A DNA stretch of 64,000 nucleotides from a virus, in the IMG/VR virus record IMGVR_UViG_3300010397_000041, positions 28,426 to 92,425 of that record; one strand, 5' to 3'. Below, piece by piece: positions 27,241-63,097 of this stretch. The notes under the pieces were generated by a model. That model worked only from the letters and a program-made list of their open reading frames with translations, was not told the DNA's origin and made no database searches. Made by a program: the position numbers and the translations under genes. The stretch's first letter is position 1. Each line of letters begins with the position of its first letter.

Positions 27241-27438
27241 TTAGTCGTGCCGCGGACAGCCGCCCATGACCACCAGGCCGTAGGTCGGATGCCAGTGGCA
27301 GCCGCATCCCAGGCCGCGGCGAAGCCACACGTGGGCGATGAACAGGAAGCGCCGCGGGCCGGGCCTGTACCCGGCCTCACGCCAGAGGGGACGCATGAAC
27401 CGGACGTAGCCGATCAAAGTCACAGGGTCCGCCTCCAA
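27241..27438 (-). CDS. Hypothetical small protein
   Basis: Fills the terminase-portal gap; Cys/His-rich end. Confidence 0.4.
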   Translation of the reverse strand: MEADPVTLIGYVRFMRPLWREAGYRPGPRRFLFIAHVWLRRGLGCGCHWHPTYGLVVMGGCPRHD

Positions 27439-29054
27439 CCCTGCGCGGATTCGCCCCCGCCGAACCAGGCCGACATGTCGACCGCCGCAGGCTCCCGCGC
27501 TTCGGGCGGCGGCTGCTGGTGCGCGTTGGCGTCGGATTCGGCGATCAGCTGGTCCATGAAGCTGGCGAAATCACCCCGCAGATCCACGAAGGCGAGGATG
27601 AGCGCGTCGGCGTTGTCGGGCGACCGGCCGAGCCGCTCCCGTTGATCGTCCTTCGGCTCGACCTGGATCTGCCCGCGGCTGTTCGGATGCCACTTCGCGG
27701 TCAGCAGCTGATTGCAGGCGTCGTCAGGATTCTCCGCGCCCGACTGCCACACACCGTCAGCGTTGTAGACGGCCGGGGAGAGGTCCCACGCCTGCTGCTC
27801 GGACTGGAGCCGGCCAACCTCCCACCAGATCTCCGACCGCAGGTTCGCGAACCGCTTCGAGTCGGTTGCCTGCTGGCCGACGTTCACCCCGGTCACCGTC
27901 GCCGTGTGGGTGCCGTCGCCGCGGAGCTCCTTCAGCCGGTCGGCTACGCCGGCGCCGATACCGATGCTGTCGACGTTGACGGCCGTCGCCCCGGTGATCT
28001 CAATCGCTTTGAGGACCAGGCGGACGACGGACATGGTGTCGTCGTCGCGGTCCCGCCACTCCCGGCCGACCATCCGGCCGCGCCGCTCCCGGATCACAGT
28101 CTCATCGCCGCCGCCACCGACGTCGACACCGAGGACAACCGGGGTGAGCTCGTCCGGGGTGTACTCGCGGTCGGTGGGCTGCCGGCACTTCGCCAGGTCA
28201 GAGGAGCGCACGACCTGATCGGAGGCGTCCAGCGGGAACTCGCCGAGAACCTTCTCGAACCAGAGCGGAGAGCCCTCACCCCAGTCGGCGCGCTTCTCCT
28301 CCACCCACGTCTTCGAGACCAGCGCGCGGCGCAGCAGATCCGGGACCCGTTCGCCGGTCAGGTTCGGCGTGTCGAACGCGGAGATGGTGATGACGTGCCA
28401 GCCCGAACCGGGACGGCAGACCTGCGCGAATTCGCTGGAAGGGTCGGCAGGGTTGCCGATCGCCAACAGGGCGCAGCCCTCGTTGGTCATGAGCGCGTCG
28501 GCGGCGGTCCACAGCCAGCCGGGGATCCCGCTCGCCTCGTCCAACGCAACCAGAACGCCGTCGGGGGCGTGGATGCCCTGAAAGGCGGTGCGGCCCTGCT
28601 CCGTGTCGGGCGGTTTCCGGCCGAAGCCGATCAGCTCTTTGCCGAGCTTCCACTCCGTGGTGAGCACCCGGCCGGGTAGGGGCGTGCCACGTTCCGCGGC
28701 GACCGCCGCGGCCTGGCCGATGTAGCGCCACAGGATCGCCTGGACCTGGGCAGCCGACGGCGCGGTCGTGACCGCGAACGCCTGACCGGGAGTCCGGGTC
28801 GCAAGCCAGTGGGCCACGACCCGAGAGGCAGTGTGGGACTTTCCGCAGCCGTGTGCCGACTTGACCGCGACCTTACGGTGCCTGGTCAGCGCGGTGACGA
28901 TCTCAACCTGCTTGGACCACAGATGCTCGCCGAGCACGTCCGACACCCACAGCGCGGGGTCGGTGCGGTACTGCTGCTGGCGGGCCTCGCTGTCGAGCCG
29001 GTCGAGAGCGGCGAGCAGGTTGGATGACAGCCGGTCGGGCAGCGCTACCACCAT
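27420..29054 (-). CDS. terL: Terminase large subunit
   Basis: Walker A SAHGCGKS, Walker B VALDEA, IGNP, nuclease LGVDVG, SPDNADAL. Confidence 0.96.
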   Translation of the reverse strand: MVVALPDRLSSNLLAALDRLDSEARQQQYRTDPALWVSDVLGEHLWSKQVEIVTALTRHRKVAVKSAHGCGKSHTASRVVAHWLATRTPGQAFAVTTAPSAAQVQAILWRYIGQAAAVAAERGTPLPGRVLTTEWKLGKELIGFGRKPPDTEQGRTAFQGIHAPDGVLVALDEASGIPGWLWTAADALMTNEGCALLAIGNPADPSSEFAQVCRPGSGWHVITISAFDTPNLTGERVPDLLRRALVSKTWVEEKRADWGEGSPLWFEKVLGEFPLDASDQVVRSSDLAKCRQPTDREYTPDELTPVVLGVDVGGGGDETVIRERRGRMVGREWRDRDDDTMSVVRLVLKAIEITGATAVNVDSIGIGAGVADRLKELRGDGTHTATVTGVNVGQQATDSKRFANLRSEIWWEVGRLQSEQQAWDLSPAVYNADGVWQSGAENPDDACNQLLTAKWHPNSRGQIQVEPKDDQRERLGRSPDNADALILAFVDLRGDFASFMDQLIAESDANAHQQPPPEAREPAAVDMSAWFGGGESAQGWRRTL

Positions 29055-34922: not shown

Positions 34923-35117
34923 TCATGGCGGCGCCGGCCGGGGGGCTGGGCCGACCAGGACGGTCCGGACTGAGCGCCAGTTCACGAGCATGCCGCGGCC
35001 GTCGGCGAGGTGCAGCAGTTCGACTTCGCTGCGGGCGAGTGCCTGCGCGACGCGGCGGTGAAGCTCGTCGGTGTCGGTGTCTCGGGGAATTCGTACGGCT
35101 CGCCCGCCGCGAGTCAT
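34923..35117 (-). CDS. Hypothetical protein
   Basis: GGAG RBS; LVNWRSV motif. Confidence 0.5.
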   Translation of the reverse strand: MTRGGRAVRIPRDTDTDELHRRVAQALARSEVELLHLADGRGMLVNWRSVRTVLVGPAPRPAPP

Positions 35118-35153: not shown

Positions 35154-36605
35154 TCAATTCACCATGTCGACAAACCGGCTGTAGTGCCCTTGGAATGCCA
35201 CGGTGATCGTGCCGGTCGGGCCGTTGCGGTGCTTGGCGACGATCAGATCGGCCTCGCCGGCCCGCGCTGACTCCTTCTCGACCATGTCTTCGCGGTACAG
35301 CAGGATCACGATGTCCCCGTCCTGCTCGATCTGGCCAGAATCACGCAGGTCGGCCAGCGTCGGGCGCTTGTCCGCGCGCAGGTCGGAGGCCCGGTTGAGC
35401 TGGCTGACGACCACGACTGGGATCTCCAGCTCCATCGCGAGCGTCTTCAAGCCGCGGCTGATCTCGCTGATCTCCTGGACCCGGTTGTCGCGGCGGCCCG
35501 CCGTCATCAGCTGCAGGTAGTCGACGAGCAGCAGTCGCAGGTCGTTTCGCTCGTAGAGACGCAGCGCCGCAGCGCGCAGCTCCTGCACGGTCAGGCGAGG
35601 CCAATCGTTGATGAACAGCGGCGCCTCGGCGACCTCGCCCATCCGCCGGGCGAGCCGGCCCCAGTCGTCCTCGGTCAGCCGGCCGGTGCGCATGTTCTGC
35701 AGCGAGACTCGCGCCTCCGCGGCCAGCAGCCGGAGCGTCAGATCGACCCCGGGCATCTCCAGGCTGTACAGCGCCGTCGTCATCCCGTATTTGATCGCCG
35801 CGGCGCGGGCGATGTCGAGACACAGCACCGACTTTCCGACGCCCGGCCGGCCCCCGACGACGACCAGCTGGCCGGGCTGCAGCCCATTCGTCAGGTCGTC
35901 GAGCTCGGCGAACCCGGTCGGCACCCCGGTGATCCCACCTTCGTGGGCAGCGATGGCCTCGATCGCGCCAAGCGCCGAGCCGAGCAGGTCTCCCAGGGGT
36001 CGGGATGGCGGCAGCTTCGTCGATCCGGACAGCCGGGCCGTCGGTCGGGCCACAGACGGCGCTTCGAGGACGACCTGGTCGAGGGTTCTCTCGGTGACCC
36101 GCCGGGCCGGCCGGTCGAAGTCCGCCCACGCTCGGACCGCGGCTAGCACCTCCCTGCAGGGGGCGTCCGGCGTGACCCGGGTGTCCAGGATGATCGCCGA
36201 CTCGTGGTTGCCCCGCAGGCCGGAGAATGTCAGGTTCGCCGACCCGGCCAACACGGTCTCGGACCCGTCGCCGCGGCGGATGTAGTAGCTCTTGGCGTGC
36301 ATCAGCGGTTGTTCGTCGTCGCCGTCGACGAGCAGTAGCGTCGCCCGCGAGCCGTGCGGCTCGAATAGCGCCGCGACTGCAGCCAGGTCGGCCGCGGAGA
36401 CCTGCTCCTCCCGGGCGCCGGTGACCAGGTGGACTTCACCGCCGCGGTCAAGGATGGCCGCCAGGTGCGGCTGGATCAGCTTCAGTCCGTGCTCGGTCAG
36501 GTAGCCGGTTTGGGCGGCAAAGACTCGCGCTTCCTTGAGCTCGGTGAGCATCCATCGCTCGACGGTGTGGTCGGGGCCGCCGGCGGCGGTGTCGAGATAG
36601 CGCAC
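35154..36605 (-). CDS. PLD-family nuclease domain fused to a DnaB helicase C-terminal (RecA-fold) domain
   Basis: MHAKSY...GSANLTFSGL..NHE; GRPGVGKS, YSLEM, VDYLQLM, SQLNR, DLRDSGQIEQDGD, AKHRNGPTG. Confidence 0.9.
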   Translation of the reverse strand: MRYLDTAAGGPDHTVERWMLTELKEARVFAAQTGYLTEHGLKLIQPHLAAILDRGGEVHLVTGAREEQVSAADLAAVAALFEPHGSRATLLLVDGDDEQPLMHAKSYYIRRGDGSETVLAGSANLTFSGLRGNHESAIILDTRVTPDAPCREVLAAVRAWADFDRPARRVTERTLDQVVLEAPSVARPTARLSGSTKLPPSRPLGDLLGSALGAIEAIAAHEGGITGVPTGFAELDDLTNGLQPGQLVVVGGRPGVGKSVLCLDIARAAAIKYGMTTALYSLEMPGVDLTLRLLAAEARVSLQNMRTGRLTEDDWGRLARRMGEVAEAPLFINDWPRLTVQELRAAALRLYERNDLRLLLVDYLQLMTAGRRDNRVQEISEISRGLKTLAMELEIPVVVVSQLNRASDLRADKRPTLADLRDSGQIEQDGDIVILLYREDMVEKESARAGEADLIVAKHRNGPTGTITVAFQGHYSRFVDMVN

Positions 36606-36643
36606 AGGAAGGGGCCTTCGTCCGGAACGGGTGGAGATCGCCT

Positions 36644-36857
36644 ACCGTAGCCGCCGGGCTCGACACGTCCAGACCCGCACTGCCAACTACCCCTGGGAAG
36701 ATTCGCCAACCATCGCTCGAACCTGAGTCGAGTCCCAGGCCACGAAAGATCATCGCCGTTTATCGTTGGTGGTTACACGAGGCGGCGGTGTCGCTCTCGT
36801 CGTCGACCCGGCCTTCCCGGAGGGTTTTGGTCGGCGCCGCCCGGGCGGGGTTACGGT
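36644..36857. promoter_or_regulatory. Divergent promoter region with TACGGT -10-like hexamers on both strands
   Basis: TACGGT at 36852-36857 (+), 6 nt before the PIN GTG, and at 36644-36649 (-) upstream of PLD-DnaB. Confidence 0.4.
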
Positions 36858-36863
36858 GTTCAG

Positions 36864-37358
36864 GTGCCCAGACGCTTTGTGCTCGATTCCAATTTCTTTG
36901 ACGAGCTGGTGAAGTCGCCCGAGGCCTACCAGGCCACCAGAGCCGCGGTCGAGGGAGCCGCCACCGAGCTGCTCGTCGACACAATGGTGCTCGGCCAGCT
37001 CGGCGCCACCAAGGACATCGCCAAGCGGACTCAGATGCTGGCGTATGCCAATGAGCTGTGCCGCCGGGTGGAGCACGGCGGCGCTGGGTATGGCATCGGT
37101 CCGTACGGTGCAGGCCCGTACGGCGGCGCCCGGCCCGCCGAGATGCCGATCGCGACCGCCGTGATCGGCAACGCCACCAATAACGGCACGATGGCCGACT
37201 CCGCCATCGCCGCGACCGCACACTACGAAGGCGCCGTCCTCGTCACTCGCGACGGCGCGCTCCGGAAGAAGGCAACTGCAGAGGGCGTGGAGGTTCTCTC
37301 GCCTGCGGAGTTCTTCACCGAGATCGGTTTCGACACTGCGGAGGCCGCCTCGCCGTAA
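36864..37358 (+). CDS. PIN-domain ribonuclease-like protein
   Basis: FVLDSNFF, ADSAIAATA, LVTRDGAL PIN motifs. Confidence 0.85.
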   Translation: MPRRFVLDSNFFDELVKSPEAYQATRAAVEGAATELLVDTMVLGQLGATKDIAKRTQMLAYANELCRRVEHGGAGYGIGPYGAGPYGGARPAEMPIATAVIGNATNNGTMADSAIAATAHYEGAVLVTRDGALRKKATAEGVEVLSPAEFFTEIGFDTAEAASP

Positions 37359-37804: not shown

Positions 37805-37932
37805 TTCTCACCCCCTCTCCGTCGGTGTCTCTATACTAGCATCGCGATACCAGTAAAGGCAAATCGCGGGAGTCATGGACGGCTCGAATTTTGGCCTTTT
37901 CTTCACACTGCCATCATGCGTATAGTGGATGC

Positions 37933-38490
37933 ATGATGGCAGTAGACATGAATGCTGATGCGGTACGCGCCAGCTACGACGCGGCCGACCCGATCACCTG
38001 GCGGCGAGCCGTCGCCGACGCTCGAGCACTCGACATCGCCGACGCCGCCGCCCGCCACGGCCGTGAAGCGGTCCGGATCGCGCTCGGCCACGCCGACGTG
38101 TCCGGCGTCGACAAGCTGATCCGCGCCGCGAAAGACACCCGAACCGACCCGGCACGCCTGGCCCTCGCCCTAGCCATCCGGCCGGCGCTCCTACGCGCCG
38201 CGCTCATCAACGCCGCGCCTGGCTGGCACGTCGACCCGCCGAGCGGGCTCGTCTACCGGCTCTACGACGCCGACGGCCAGGAGCTCGCGGACGAAACCGC
38301 GGCCGTGTACCGGCGCGCCGCGTTCGTCGATCTTGGTCGCTTCTGCTGGGGCGTCGCCCGGGTTGACCTCGCAGGCCGGCAGGGCCGGGTCGTGCACGGA
38401 ATGTGCGACGACCCGGCCGAGGCGATCCGCGCCGTGCTCGCCGAGCCGTTCACGTCGGCGCCGACCGAAACCCTCCCGCCGGTCCGCTGA
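37933..38490 (+). CDS. Hypothetical moron-like protein, likely leaderless
   Basis: TATAGT at 37921-37926, 6 nt before ATG; opposite strand to the early operon. Confidence 0.6.
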   Translation: MMAVDMNADAVRASYDAADPITWRRAVADARALDIADAAARHGREAVRIALGHADVSGVDKLIRAAKDTRTDPARLALALAIRPALLRAALINAAPGWHVDPPSGLVYRLYDADGQELADETAAVYRRAAFVDLGRFCWGVARVDLAGRQGRVVHGMCDDPAEAIRAVLAEPFTSAPTETLPPVR

Positions 38491-48709: not shown

Positions 48710-49023
48710 CGGCCGGCTCCGTCCAGCGTGGCCGGGTCGAGGAGCCGCGGACCGGCGTCCTGCTGGAGGCCGGCCGGCGCCGGCCGCGGCGGGAGCGCCC
48801 TACGTGCGGCGTCAGCGCCGCGGACGGCCGCGTCCCGCTGCTGCTGCCGCAGGGCGGCCTGGGCCTGCTCGTGGCGCTTCTGGCGGGCAGCGAGACGCCG
48901 GGCGCGGGTCTCCGACGGCGGGACAGTCGTGATCTCGCCGGTCGACTCGTTGACGTAGGTGTTCGAGCCGTCGGGGATCTCGCGGCCGAACACGTGGCCG
49001 GGGAGCGGCGGCGGGGTGCTCAC
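48706..49023 (-). CDS. Hypothetical protein
   Basis: GGAGG RBS; coupled on both sides. Confidence 0.55.
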   Translation of the reverse strand: MSTPPPLPGHVFGREIPDGSNTYVNESTGEITTVPPSETRARRLAARQKRHEQAQAALRQQQRDAAVRGADAARRALPPRPAPAGLQQDAGPRLLDPATLDGAGR

Positions 49024-50180
49024 GCGGACCTCCTGCACGGCTCTGTGCGCGCGCTCTGGCCGATGACTGGTCGCGGGCCGGCTGGGTGCTGGTCCGTGTG
49101 CCTGTCGTCGGTTTCGAGGCGTCTGAGGGCTTCGGTGAGGGCTGGGGCGTCGTCTCCGTGCCGGGTGGCTGTGTCGGGGCAGTGGCAGGCGCCGTGAAGC
49201 GCGCAGTGGCCGCTACAGCCGCGGAGTCCTCGGAGGTGGGGGGTTTGTCCGGTACGCGGGGGGTGCGGGGGGCGCGCGTTTGCGCCCCCCGCGGTGGGCT
49301 GGGTGGTGGGCATCGGGACCTCGTGCGCGCCTGCTCGCGCGCTGGTGAGTGGTCGCTGGGGGTGGCTGGTCTGGGTGGGTGGCTGGTCCAGCCCAAGCGG
49401 GTCCGTTGGTTCGGTCGGGTGCCGCTTCGGGGGGCCGAGACGCCGGCCCCCCGCACCCCCGGCGTCTCGGGACGTTGGCTCGCTCTGCGTGGTGGGTTGC
49501 GGGGCGTGCCGGGTCGCGCTGTCGGCCGGCGGGTCCGCTGGGGTGGCGTCGGTGGTTGCGTGGCGTCGGGGTCGGAGGGGGATCACCTTCGCGAGGCCGG
49601 GCTCAGCTTGGGTGGGTGGCTGCGCCGCGCGGGGCGCGTCGCCGCGGCTGGCGTCGTGGCCATGTCGCCGGTCGCGGTCCGGGTCTACTGCTCCGACCTC
49701 GCTGCGCGAGGACTGGTTTTTATAGCGGGCCACAGGGTGGCTCACAACTTCGGCGAGTTGGGTACGAGTGGCTGGCTCACAACTTCCGGGAGTTGTGAGC
49801 CGTTCGTGGCTCACAACTCGGGGAGTTGTGAGCCGAACTTGGCTCACAACTTCACCGGGTGGGACCTTCGTCGTCCATCCTCGGAACGCCTCCCAGCGGC
49901 CGAGGCGGCCATTCCCGCCTTCCCTCGTGTTCTTCATCCAGCCGTGTTCGGCGAGCCAGGTGAGGTGGCGGCTGAGGCTCCGCTCGGGCATGCCGAGCGC
50001 TGCGGCGAGGTATGGCCGGCTTCTTTCCAGCGTGCCGTCAGGCTTCATGAAGGCGACGACCTCGAGTGCTGTCGCTTTGTAGGTGCGGGTCGCGGTCGGC
50101 CAGGTCGCGGCCTTGATGGCCCGCTGCCATCCGGCCCTGTCGACGCGCGTCTGGTCGTCACTCACCGTTGACGTGCTCAC
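49020..50180 (-). CDS. Phage replication initiator-like wHTH protein
   Basis: YLAAALGMPERSLSRHLTWLAEHGWM winged HTH followed by an iteron-containing linker. Confidence 0.7.
   Translation of the reverse strand: MSTSTVSDDQTRVDRAGWQRAIKAATWPTATRTYKATALEVVAFMKPDGTLERSRPYLAAALGMPERSLSRHLTWLAEHGWMKNTREGGNGRLGRWEAFRGWTTKVPPGEVVSQVRLTTPRVVSHERLTTPGSCEPATRTQLAEVVSHPVARYKNQSSRSEVGAVDPDRDRRHGHDASRGDAPRAAQPPTQAEPGLAKVIPLRPRRHATTDATPADPPADSATRHAPQPTTQSEPTSRDAGGAGGRRLGPPKRHPTEPTDPLGLDQPPTQTSHPQRPLTSARAGAHEVPMPTTQPTAGGANARPPHPPRTGQTPHLRGLRGCSGHCALHGACHCPDTATRHGDDAPALTEALRRLETDDRHTDQHPAGPRPVIGQSARTEPCRRSA
49715..49851. repeat. Iteron cluster, putative replication origin
   Basis: GGCTCACAACT at 49739, 49774, 49808, 49841; reverse complement at 49791, 49824; adjacent TTTTTATA. 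Confidence 0.75.
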
Positions 50181-61822: not shown

Positions 61823-63097
61823 GTGGCCCACATCCGTGGCCTCGGTCCGCCGAACCCGCACTATCCCAAGCGGGGCAAGAAGAACCTAGGCCCATACAAG
61901 ATCACGGTTAAGCGGAAGGGCTGGGACGACCGCTTCTTCACCCGCGACACCCTGGCCGCCGCAGAAAAATGCGCTCTGCACGCGGAGGAGGACCTCGACA
62001 ACGGGATCGACCCCTACGACCGGTACAAACAGAAGCACAGCGCCGACACCACCACGCTCGAGGCGTTCGCGGAACTGTGGCTCGCCGCCCACTTCCACGA
62101 ACCCAGCACCCGCTACAACGCCGAGCTGACCGTCGCCAAACACATCTTGCCGGTCTTCGGGACACGCGAGCTGACCGACGGCCAGCACCGCATCCGCCCC
62201 ATGGAGATCGACGCCTGGCTGGGGCGGCTCCGGCGCGACCGCGTCCCGAAGACCGGCCGGCCACTCGCGAACGCCACCATCCGCAAGATCTTCGGGCACC
62301 TTGATGGACTCCTCACCGCGGCCGTCCTCGAGGGCCACCTGGCCAAGAACCCCTGCGTCGGCATCGTTCCCCCAAGGGTGCCGAAACGTCCCAAGGTTCG
62401 GCCTGGGCACATCCTGACGCCGGCGCAGGTCATCGCCATCGCCGAGGTGATCCAACGCCCCCGCAAGGGCGCAAAGCCCGGTGCTCCCGTCCTAGAGCGC
62501 AGGCGCCGGTTCGCGATCCTCGTGATCGTGCTCGCGTGGTCCGGGTGTCGGCCGGAGGAGCTGCGGGGGCTGCGCCGCGACGAGGTCCACCCTCTGCGCC
62601 GGCCGGCGCCGACGCTGACAGTGGTCGAGCCGGTGAAGCGGGGCCTGGTCGCGAATCCCACGGAGAACGGGCCGAAGACCGAGCTCTATCACGGCTCGCC
62701 GAAATCGGACGCCGGCCAGCGGGATGTCGAGCTGATCCAGCCTGTCTGGCTGCTGATCGCCGAGCTGATGGCGAACAAGCGGCGGTATGTGTTCGGCACC
62801 CGCAACCAGACGCCCTTTCAGGCGCCGGACTTCCAGGAGATCTGGGACGAGGCGGTGACCTCGCTCGGGCATCCGGAGTGGAGGCCCTACGACCTACGCC
62901 GGTCGCACGCCACCTGGCTGAAGCGGGCGCCGCGGCGTGCGCTGCAGGAGCGGCTCGGGCACGAGCCGCAGGACGTCACCGACCTCTACCAGGACGTGGA
63001 GCCGGAGGACCGCGCGGAGATCCTCACCGTGCTGAACCGGCTCTGGAAGGAGGGCCAGGCCGGCGCGGCGCTGGTCGCGGCGGCCGCCGCACAGTGA
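61823..63097 (+). CDS. int: Tyrosine integrase
   Basis: WSGCRPEELRGL, PYDLRRSHATWL, RLGH, TDLY catalytic motifs; SAM-like N-domain. Confidence 0.95.
   Translation: MAHIRGLGPPNPHYPKRGKKNLGPYKITVKRKGWDDRFFTRDTLAAAEKCALHAEEDLDNGIDPYDRYKQKHSADTTTLEAFAELWLAAHFHEPSTRYNAELTVAKHILPVFGTRELTDGQHRIRPMEIDAWLGRLRRDRVPKTGRPLANATIRKIFGHLDGLLTAAVLEGHLAKNPCVGIVPPRVPKRPKVRPGHILTPAQVIAIAEVIQRPRKGAKPGAPVLERRRRFAILVIVLAWSGCRPEELRGLRRDEVHPLRRPAPTLTVVEPVKRGLVANPTENGPKTELYHGSPKSDAGQRDVELIQPVWLLIAELMANKRRYVFGTRNQTPFQAPDFQEIWDEAVTSLGHPEWRPYDLRRSHATWLKRAPRRALQERLGHEPQDVTDLYQDVEPEDRAEILTVLNRLWKEGQAGAALVAAAAAQ

Follow-up and report, generated by a model that had tools for sequence, protein, structure and literature searches.

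What is the function of a protein in which a nuclease domain of the phospholipase D (PLD) type is joined to the motor of the helicase DnaB? The question was raised by a gene in a 64,000-nt window (the whole stretch of DNA that was analyzed) of the virus record IMGVR_UViG_3300010397_000041. This record is a metagenomic assembly of a temperate actinophage from soil with ~70% GC; it is 92,425 bp long, has a 123-bp terminal repeat, and was 100% complete by CheckV. The fusion gene is located at 35154..36605 on the minus strand, starts with GTG, has a GC content at third codon positions (GC3) of 0.89, and encodes 483 aa. Judged from its motifs, the protein has the catalytic residue sets of both the nuclease and the helicase, and it probably works as a motor that is driven by ATP and cuts DNA. 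The reading favored here, with an estimated probability of about 0.42, is a hexameric translocase of single-stranded DNA (ssDNA) with three PLD active sites and an accessory role in genetic conflict.

Domain Architecture of the Fusion Protein

The AlphaFold model of the whole fusion protein (predicted local distance difference test score, pLDDT, 86) showed a compact N-terminal domain, a disordered tether, a helix, and a RecA-type motor. The N-terminal domain (aa 1–170; 36096..36605, minus strand, as are all parts of the gene) was assigned by Pfam, AlphaFold2, and Foldseek as a half-site PLD nuclease domain of the BfiI/NgoAVII/SauUSI type. The flexible tether spanned aa 171–203 (35997..36095), with pLDDT <50 at aa 180–198, and was followed by the DnaB linker helix at aa 204–220 (35946..35996), which was helical in the model. 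Similarity to >150 canonical DnaBs started at the onset of this helix, at aa 203–204. The RecA-type DnaB_C motor occupied aa 227–479 (35169..35927) according to Pfam, Foldseek, and its motifs. The start codon was supported by homologues that begin at the same MRYxD N-terminus.

The DnaB_C family (PF03796) matched the motor over model positions 1–254 of 255 (E 4.8e-95). The Walker A motif was GGRPGVGKS at aa 251–259 (35829-35855), with GKS at 257–259; the Walker B motif contained D362 (35511-35534). SQLNR was found at aa 401–405, and the arginine-finger region had LADLRDSG at aa 417–424 (35313-35357). In a Foldseek search, the C-terminal half matched DnaB structures including 4esv at 36–44% identity, and the ATPase domain of G40P (3bh0) was matched with a template modeling (TM) score of 0.94 and a root-mean-square deviation of 1.6 Å. 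The motor with its linker helix (aa 203–483) was 61–70% identical to chromosomal actinobacterial DnaB. The closest protein was from Frankia gtarii (70%), and its gene was syntenic with the Streptomyces dnaB region. Identity to canonical DnaBs on many viral contigs, which have the N-terminal domain PF00772, was 50–63%.

PF00772 was present in all the closest viral relatives of the motor. It had no Pfam match in the fusion protein, and a DnaB_N query across the whole 92-kb phage returned nothing. A sequence-only reading of this DNA had proposed a PLD domain in place of the DnaB N-terminal domain, a host-like motor, and intact helicase motifs throughout. The PLDc_2 match at aa 47–143, the full DnaB_C match, the canonical motifs, and the identity to chromosomal DnaB bore out all three proposals.

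In a quick tree, the motor clade of this fusion stood beside Frankia chromosomal DnaB, with a Shimodaira–Hasegawa-like approximate likelihood ratio (SH-aLRT) support of 99. Repeated capture of motors, which would make the fusion motors polyphyletic, was considered and dropped: the approximately unbiased (AU) test did not reject one common clade for the motors of all fusions (p 0.85), the constrained tree scored better, and the result is compatible with a single origin.

Assignment of the PLD Domain

The PLDc_2 match of the N-terminal domain had 37.8 bits (cut-off 27), and the match to RE_NgoFVII was weak. Folded alone with 89 homologues, the domain reached a pLDDT of 96. The best Foldseek match of the model was SauUSI (7clg; E 9e-12, TM score 0.73–0.76), followed by BfiI (2c1l), NgoAVII-R (4rct), and Nuc (1byr). 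Zucchini was also matched, and the probability was 1.00 for each of 7clg, 2c1l, 4rct, 1byr, and 4gel.

The active-site residues were H103-A-K105 (HxK motif, 36285..36299), G121-S-A-N124, and N133-H-E135 (both within 36198..36245), so that the catalytic four are H103, K105, N124, and E135. The equivalent residues are H105/K107/N125/E136 in BfiI and H104/K106/D124/E137 in NgoAVII (PMC4267654). Across the fusions, G and S of GSxN were invariant, and N and the downstream E were nearly invariant. The HxK(x)4D motif, as given in textbooks, ends in an Asp that the fusion lacks, position 110 being Arg. The whole BfiI-like family lacks an Asp there (consensus HPKTYHxxR), and its absence is therefore no argument against activity.

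An exhaustive HMMER search with aa 1–215 gave 405 clusters at 50% identity. Most clusters were proteins of ~400 aa with the same N-terminal PLD domain and a different C-terminal part. An alignment of 67 such proteins (A1) showed invariant H, K, G, S, N, and E, and the HxK of the fusion aligned with the invariant H and K. RE_NgoFVII matched 51 of the 67 and the BfiI DNA-binding domain (BfiI_DBD) one. The A1 family is the BfiI/NgoAVII "R-protein" family, and the PLD half of the fusion belongs to the restriction-endonuclease lineage. In a tree of PLD domains, 23 of 24 fusion domains fell on one side with weak support.

Enzymes of the BfiI/NgoAVII type form one active site from two PLD domains, and a His-to-Ala change abolishes cleavage (PMC4267654). 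Cleavage in this lineage occurs only with an ATP motor, which acts in trans in NgoAVII and CglI and is fused in SauUSI (PMC4267654; see also PMC4267653, PMC5861437, and PMC7913695).

Two side observations concern PLD proteins. In A1 (example, L192:2688-4172), the C-terminal domain had no Pfam match except BfiI_DBD in the one member mentioned, and one A1 member is on a viral contig. In 17 of 401 sampled actinomycete genomes, proteins of ~1040–1280 aa (L168–L184) had an N-terminal PLD domain weakly similar to that of the fusion (24–34% identity); these are probably SauUSI-like PLD-helicase restriction enzymes.

Conservation of Catalytic Motifs in the Family

The catalytic His of the PLD domain and the Walker A Lys were compared in 25 fusions. 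Both were kept in nine fusions, only the Walker A Lys was kept in six, and both were lost in 10. No fusion kept the His and lost the Walker A Lys. By analogy with NgoAVII, CglI, and SauUSI, the absence of a nuclease-intact, motor-dead member fits a motor-dependent nuclease. The doubly inactive fusions retained the fold as well as the GSxN and E residues.

One doubly inactive fusion (L187:2024-3460) is on the viral contig IMGVR_UViG_3300044658_000069 (G002), directly after a canonical, motif-intact DnaB (L187:629-1996). In this fusion FQNAK replaces HxK, and Walker A reads GRPAAGTST. The pair resembles a helicase gene with a partner gene, and the fusion paralogue might be a helicase loader or regulator.

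Distribution, Mobility, and Selection

The combination of PLDc and DnaB_C, a search for which had been proposed as a check of the sequence-only reading, was rare: it was found in ~25 of the best 150 among the 405 PLD-domain clusters. The group is small and actinobacterial; its clusters hold 1–3 sequences each and are labeled generically, for example as "HKD family nuclease/KaiC...RecA-like ATPase". A literature search found no published account of a PLD plus DnaB_C architecture.

The N-terminal domain had no match among 50,697 deposited phage genomes; in a set of 72,556 plasmids, its only matches were on two Pseudonocardia megaplasmids. The fusion was found in none of the 401 sampled actinomycete genomes and in one of 56 Frankiaceae genomes. 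A candidate among the 401 (G096) was rejected, as it is a PLD protein without DnaB_C. In IMG/VR, the fusion was found only in this record, in G002, and in a third contig, G439; a scan with the PLD domain only (alignment A5) gave just three viral loci. A GC-biased DNA pattern for VGSANLT found nine loci in metagenomes, with no fusion among them, and a scan of genome contigs with the fusion alignment, which was keyed on the DnaB_C pattern, returned chromosomal dnaB loci only.

G439 is a 173-kb viral contig with a motif-intact fusion and a canonical DnaB 54 kb away. Two side observations were made on it (L191:8002-9578 and L191:2979-4601). In phages and plasmids, DUF3987 is part of primase-helicase proteins; the DUF3987 gene of G439 consists of two open reading frames (ORFs) that overlap, and this split may be a frameshift or programmed. 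A gene for a TROVE (Ro60-like) plus VWA protein lies some kb upstream of the fusion.

The Frankia copy and the phage fusion were 80% identical at the protein level and 84% at the DNA level. The block that blastn found in both (window 36653->35164, 84% over 1501 bp) consisted of the gene and a 48-bp leader (36606..36653) only, and the flanks were unrelated. The 36-kb Frankia contig contained nothing else resembling this phage or ~130 other actinophage loci, and no integrase or phage genes were detected on it; the fusion adjoins a lanthipeptide cluster. The same genome keeps its own dnaB, apparently intein-bearing. In this dnaB (G418:C176:12496-14160), the DnaB_C match is split (1–33 and 33–254) inside an 896-aa open frame, consistent with an intein.

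The ratio of nonsynonymous to synonymous substitution rates (dN/dS, omega) between the phage and Frankia copies was 0.19 in the PLD domain and 0.22 in the motor; the tether had a value of 0.67. Both halves of the fusion are under purifying selection. When five genomic contexts of fusions were compared, no neighboring gene was conserved across them. The fusion is a horizontally mobile one-gene cassette with no conserved partner. The gene-only block shared with Frankia, the unconserved neighbors, and the dN/dS values thus indicated a genuine fusion that moves as a single gene and is under selection in each of its halves.

The same architecture occurred in independent isolates (Frankia CiP3 and AiPs1/AiPa1, Saccharopolyspora, and Pseudonocardia) and in other metagenomes. 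An assembly artefact, which the sequence-only reading had named as a possible refutation, or a decaying pseudogene was ruled out by these isolates, the Frankia ones holding the 80% identical gene, and by the unbroken frame, the uniform GC3, and an omega of ~0.2 in both halves.

The Pseudonocardia plasmid fusion lies near a pair of genes for an AAA ATPase and a UvrD helicase, a methyltransferase, and insertion sequence (IS) elements; the others among the five contexts did not look island-like. On pBCI1-2 (L165:6178-8963), this pair is cut by an IS21 element 3 kb from an inactive fusion, and it may be a Gabija-like defense pair.

Proposed Function and Alternative Explanations

The collar of DnaB is a trimer of dimers on the face of the ring where the tracked strand exits and DnaG docks (cf. 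7t22, among the structures matched by the C-terminal half). A half-site PLD domain would have an active site only as a dimer, so that a hexamer would carry three nuclease sites. These sites would lie on the strand-exit face of the ring, the usual place of the primase. ATP-driven 5′→3′ translocation would feed the tracked strand or the fork into the nuclease, and forked or replicating DNA would be destroyed. The host-like motor would let the host DnaB-loading pathway place the enzyme on DNA. The activity could be used in conflict, by excluding competing phages and plasmids or by attacking host DNA. A conflict role is favored because cells that already have a DnaB and a temperate phage could both make use of such an enzyme, and because the gene travels alone. 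A bolder form of this proposal must be called unlikely as a whole: that the protein is the first helicase-nuclease effector of superfamily 4 (SF4, DnaB-type), a "Trojan horse" that enters through host DnaB loading, cuts the exiting strand, and kills the forks of a competitor or the host, with the dead paralogues, among them the G002 copy, acting as derived antidotes, ring poisons, or loading partners.

Several observations weigh against a nuclease used in conflict. The complete 92-kb genome has no DnaB-type (DnaB_C) gene besides the fusion. Replication genes surround the fusion in the other two phages, where it immediately follows the canonical DnaB (G002) or DUF3987 (G439). In the phage studied here, it lies 6–7.5 kb upstream of the terminase, a position similar to that of the canonical DnaB in relatives of this phage. 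The catalytic His is gone in 16 of the 25 fusions (~60%) and the Walker A Lys also in 10, and catalysis is therefore dispensable in much of the family. PADLOC-DB v2 gave no system-level match for the fusion and nothing for four neighboring genes; its weak hits concerned the bare PLD domain only (DrmC at 3e-7, PbeA, ZacB, and DpdK). The "defense effector" of the sequence-only reading thus stood in part. The restriction-type PLD lineage, the mobile single gene, and the canonical DnaB alongside support it; the missing PADLOC system, the replication-gene neighbors, and the loss of His do not.

The strongest alternative is that the fusion is the replicative helicase of the phage. The PLD domain would then replace the collar structurally, dimerizing and regulating the ring, or it would nick the origin for self-loading, as in HUH-helicase Rep proteins. 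The sole DnaB_C gene, the canonical motor close to chromosomal DnaB, and the replication neighborhoods in G002 and G439 all speak for it. The widespread loss of His would suit a mainly structural N-terminal domain. PLD enzymes work via a covalent phospho-histidine intermediate, and this would suit a nickase.

Among 10 near-complete relatives identified by the terminase, three (G442, G456, and G457) have a canonical DnaB on the strand of the terminase, 11–12 kb upstream of it, and the fusion shares with this DnaB a place at the end of the early region. Strict synteny of the two was rejected, as no flanking genes are common to the fusion locus and the canonical DnaB loci of these relatives. The other seven relatives have no DnaB, and the phage lineage therefore needs no helicase of its own.

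Further evidence is against a replicative helicase. Lacking the DnaB N-terminal domain, the protein cannot attach to DnaG by the established route, and the phage had no match to Toprim_4 (DnaG-type), Prim-Pol, PolA, or SSB. The 80% identical Frankia gene, at an omega of ~0.2, is on a contig without detected phage genes in a genome with its own dnaB. The fusion is also 12 kb from the only, weak initiator candidate of the phage, and a helicase with an active nuclease where the strand leaves the ring would have its own template cleaved. The canonical DnaB that accompanies the fusion in G002, G439, and Frankia argues against it being simply "the" replicative helicase, as the sequence-only reading had held; that claim is qualified by the lack of a second DnaB-type gene in this phage. 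A replicative helicase is a possible but somewhat doubtful explanation.

Another explanation is a modulator or poison of DnaB. The DnaB_C part with its linker helix would co-assemble with, cap, or help load the DnaB of the host or phage, and the PLD domain would bind DNA or dimerize; doubly inactive members would be pure loaders or inhibitors, to which intact ones add cleavage. The G002 pair, the 10 doubly inactive fusions that keep the fold, GSxN, and E, and the 70% identity of the motor and linker helix to Frankia DnaB would suit this role. The protein studied here retains all catalytic residues of both domains under purifying selection, however, and no canonical DnaB is adjacent to the fusion in this phage, G439, Frankia, or Pseudonocardia. 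A modulator, which would act in hetero-oligomers, is an improbable explanation.

A decoy effector, as suggested by the sequence-only reading, in which helicase loaders or inhibitors of an invading phage bind the DnaB part and the resulting oligomerization activates PLD, is compatible with the host-like motor, the mobile single-gene cassette, and obligate dimerization of half-site PLD domains, but it is very improbable, since all ATPase and translocation motifs are kept under selection, which a pure decoy would not need, and PADLOC gave no match.

Comparison with Known Systems

The nearest known arrangement is that of SauUSI, the best structural match of the N-terminal domain, in which an N-terminal half-site PLD domain is also fused to an ATP-driven DNA motor. 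SauUSI dimerizes through its nuclease domains (PMC7913695). Its motor is a superfamily 2 (SF2) translocase of double-stranded DNA with a target-recognition domain that reads modification, whereas the fusion has an SF4 DnaB ring. Pfam found no SF2 motor, B3/BfiI_DBD, or target-recognition domain in the fusion protein, and its sequence identity to SauUSI was 18–20%.

The PLD domains of BfiI and of the NgoAVII and CglI R-proteins have the same size (~165–170 aa), equivalent residues, and a long linker to a second domain, a layout also found in the non-fusion A1 relatives. The fusion has the DnaB_C motor where they have a B3-type DNA-binding domain. NgoAVII and CglI require an ATPase partner (PMC4267654; also PMC4267653 and PMC5861437). 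Neither a methyltransferase gene nor a separate gene for an N/H ATPase adjoins the fusion gene.

Canonical DnaB (4esv; SPP1 G40P, 3bh0/3bgw) has the linker helix and a RecA-type motor with the full set of motifs, as does the fusion; its helical, primase-binding collar (PF00772) is replaced in the fusion. T7 gp4 and Twinkle are SF4 ring helicases with a fused N-terminal enzyme that acts on the strand exiting the ring and either replaces the collar or precedes it. There the fused enzyme is a primase, which builds, whereas that of the fusion is a nuclease, which cuts, and the N-terminal parts are unrelated in sequence.

Fusions of nuclease and helicase such as Cas3, RecBCD, SauUSI, and Dna2 have central roles in the immunity of bacteria and in DNA repair. 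To our knowledge, all known ones use motors of superfamily 1 or 2. The sequences described here were already in databases under generic names, and what is new is the nuclease-motor fusion on an SF4 ring helicase. If the proposed function is true, a DnaB ring with a nuclease at the collar position would be a new coupling of translocation to cleavage, aimed at the replication fork. The nuclease-dead and doubly dead members of the family are natural controls. We know of no DnaC/DnaI-type loaders in Actinobacteria, and the doubly dead members may reveal a helicase partner or loader there. If the fusion is a replicative helicase instead, the N-terminal collar of DnaB would be swappable for an unrelated dimerizing domain.

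Genomic Context and Neighboring Genes

The order of genes on the minus strand of the phage was RecE-like nuclease, RecT, helix-turn-helix regulator, initiator candidate, SpoU methylase, PLD-DnaB_C fusion, large terminase (27420-29054), portal, Mu-F, tail tube, and tape measure. The integrase is on the plus strand at 61823-63097. The sequence-only reading had placed the replication initiator 12 kb from the fusion and had described divergent promoters. The distance was correct (12.4 kb), and the identity of the initiator rests on a weak phrog_270 match (E 4.9e-5) of the sole candidate, at 49020-50180 on the minus strand. Divergence was also correct: a 258-bp spacer (36606..36863) separates the fusion from two plus-strand genes. 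The promoters were not supported, as a scan of this spacer found no sigma-70-like promoter.

No terminator was found, and RNA folding downstream was no better than that of shuffled sequence (z = 0.5). A 64-codon ORF at 34923-35117 on the minus strand, which is absent from the block shared with the Frankia copy, lies in the gap of 262 bp that follows the fusion gene. The two plus-strand genes directly upstream of the fusion, at 36864-37358 and 37891-38490, are opposed to the minus-strand gene flow. The first had a weak PIN-domain match (E 1e-4, under the cut-off), and the two genes may represent a moron or toxin-like cassette.

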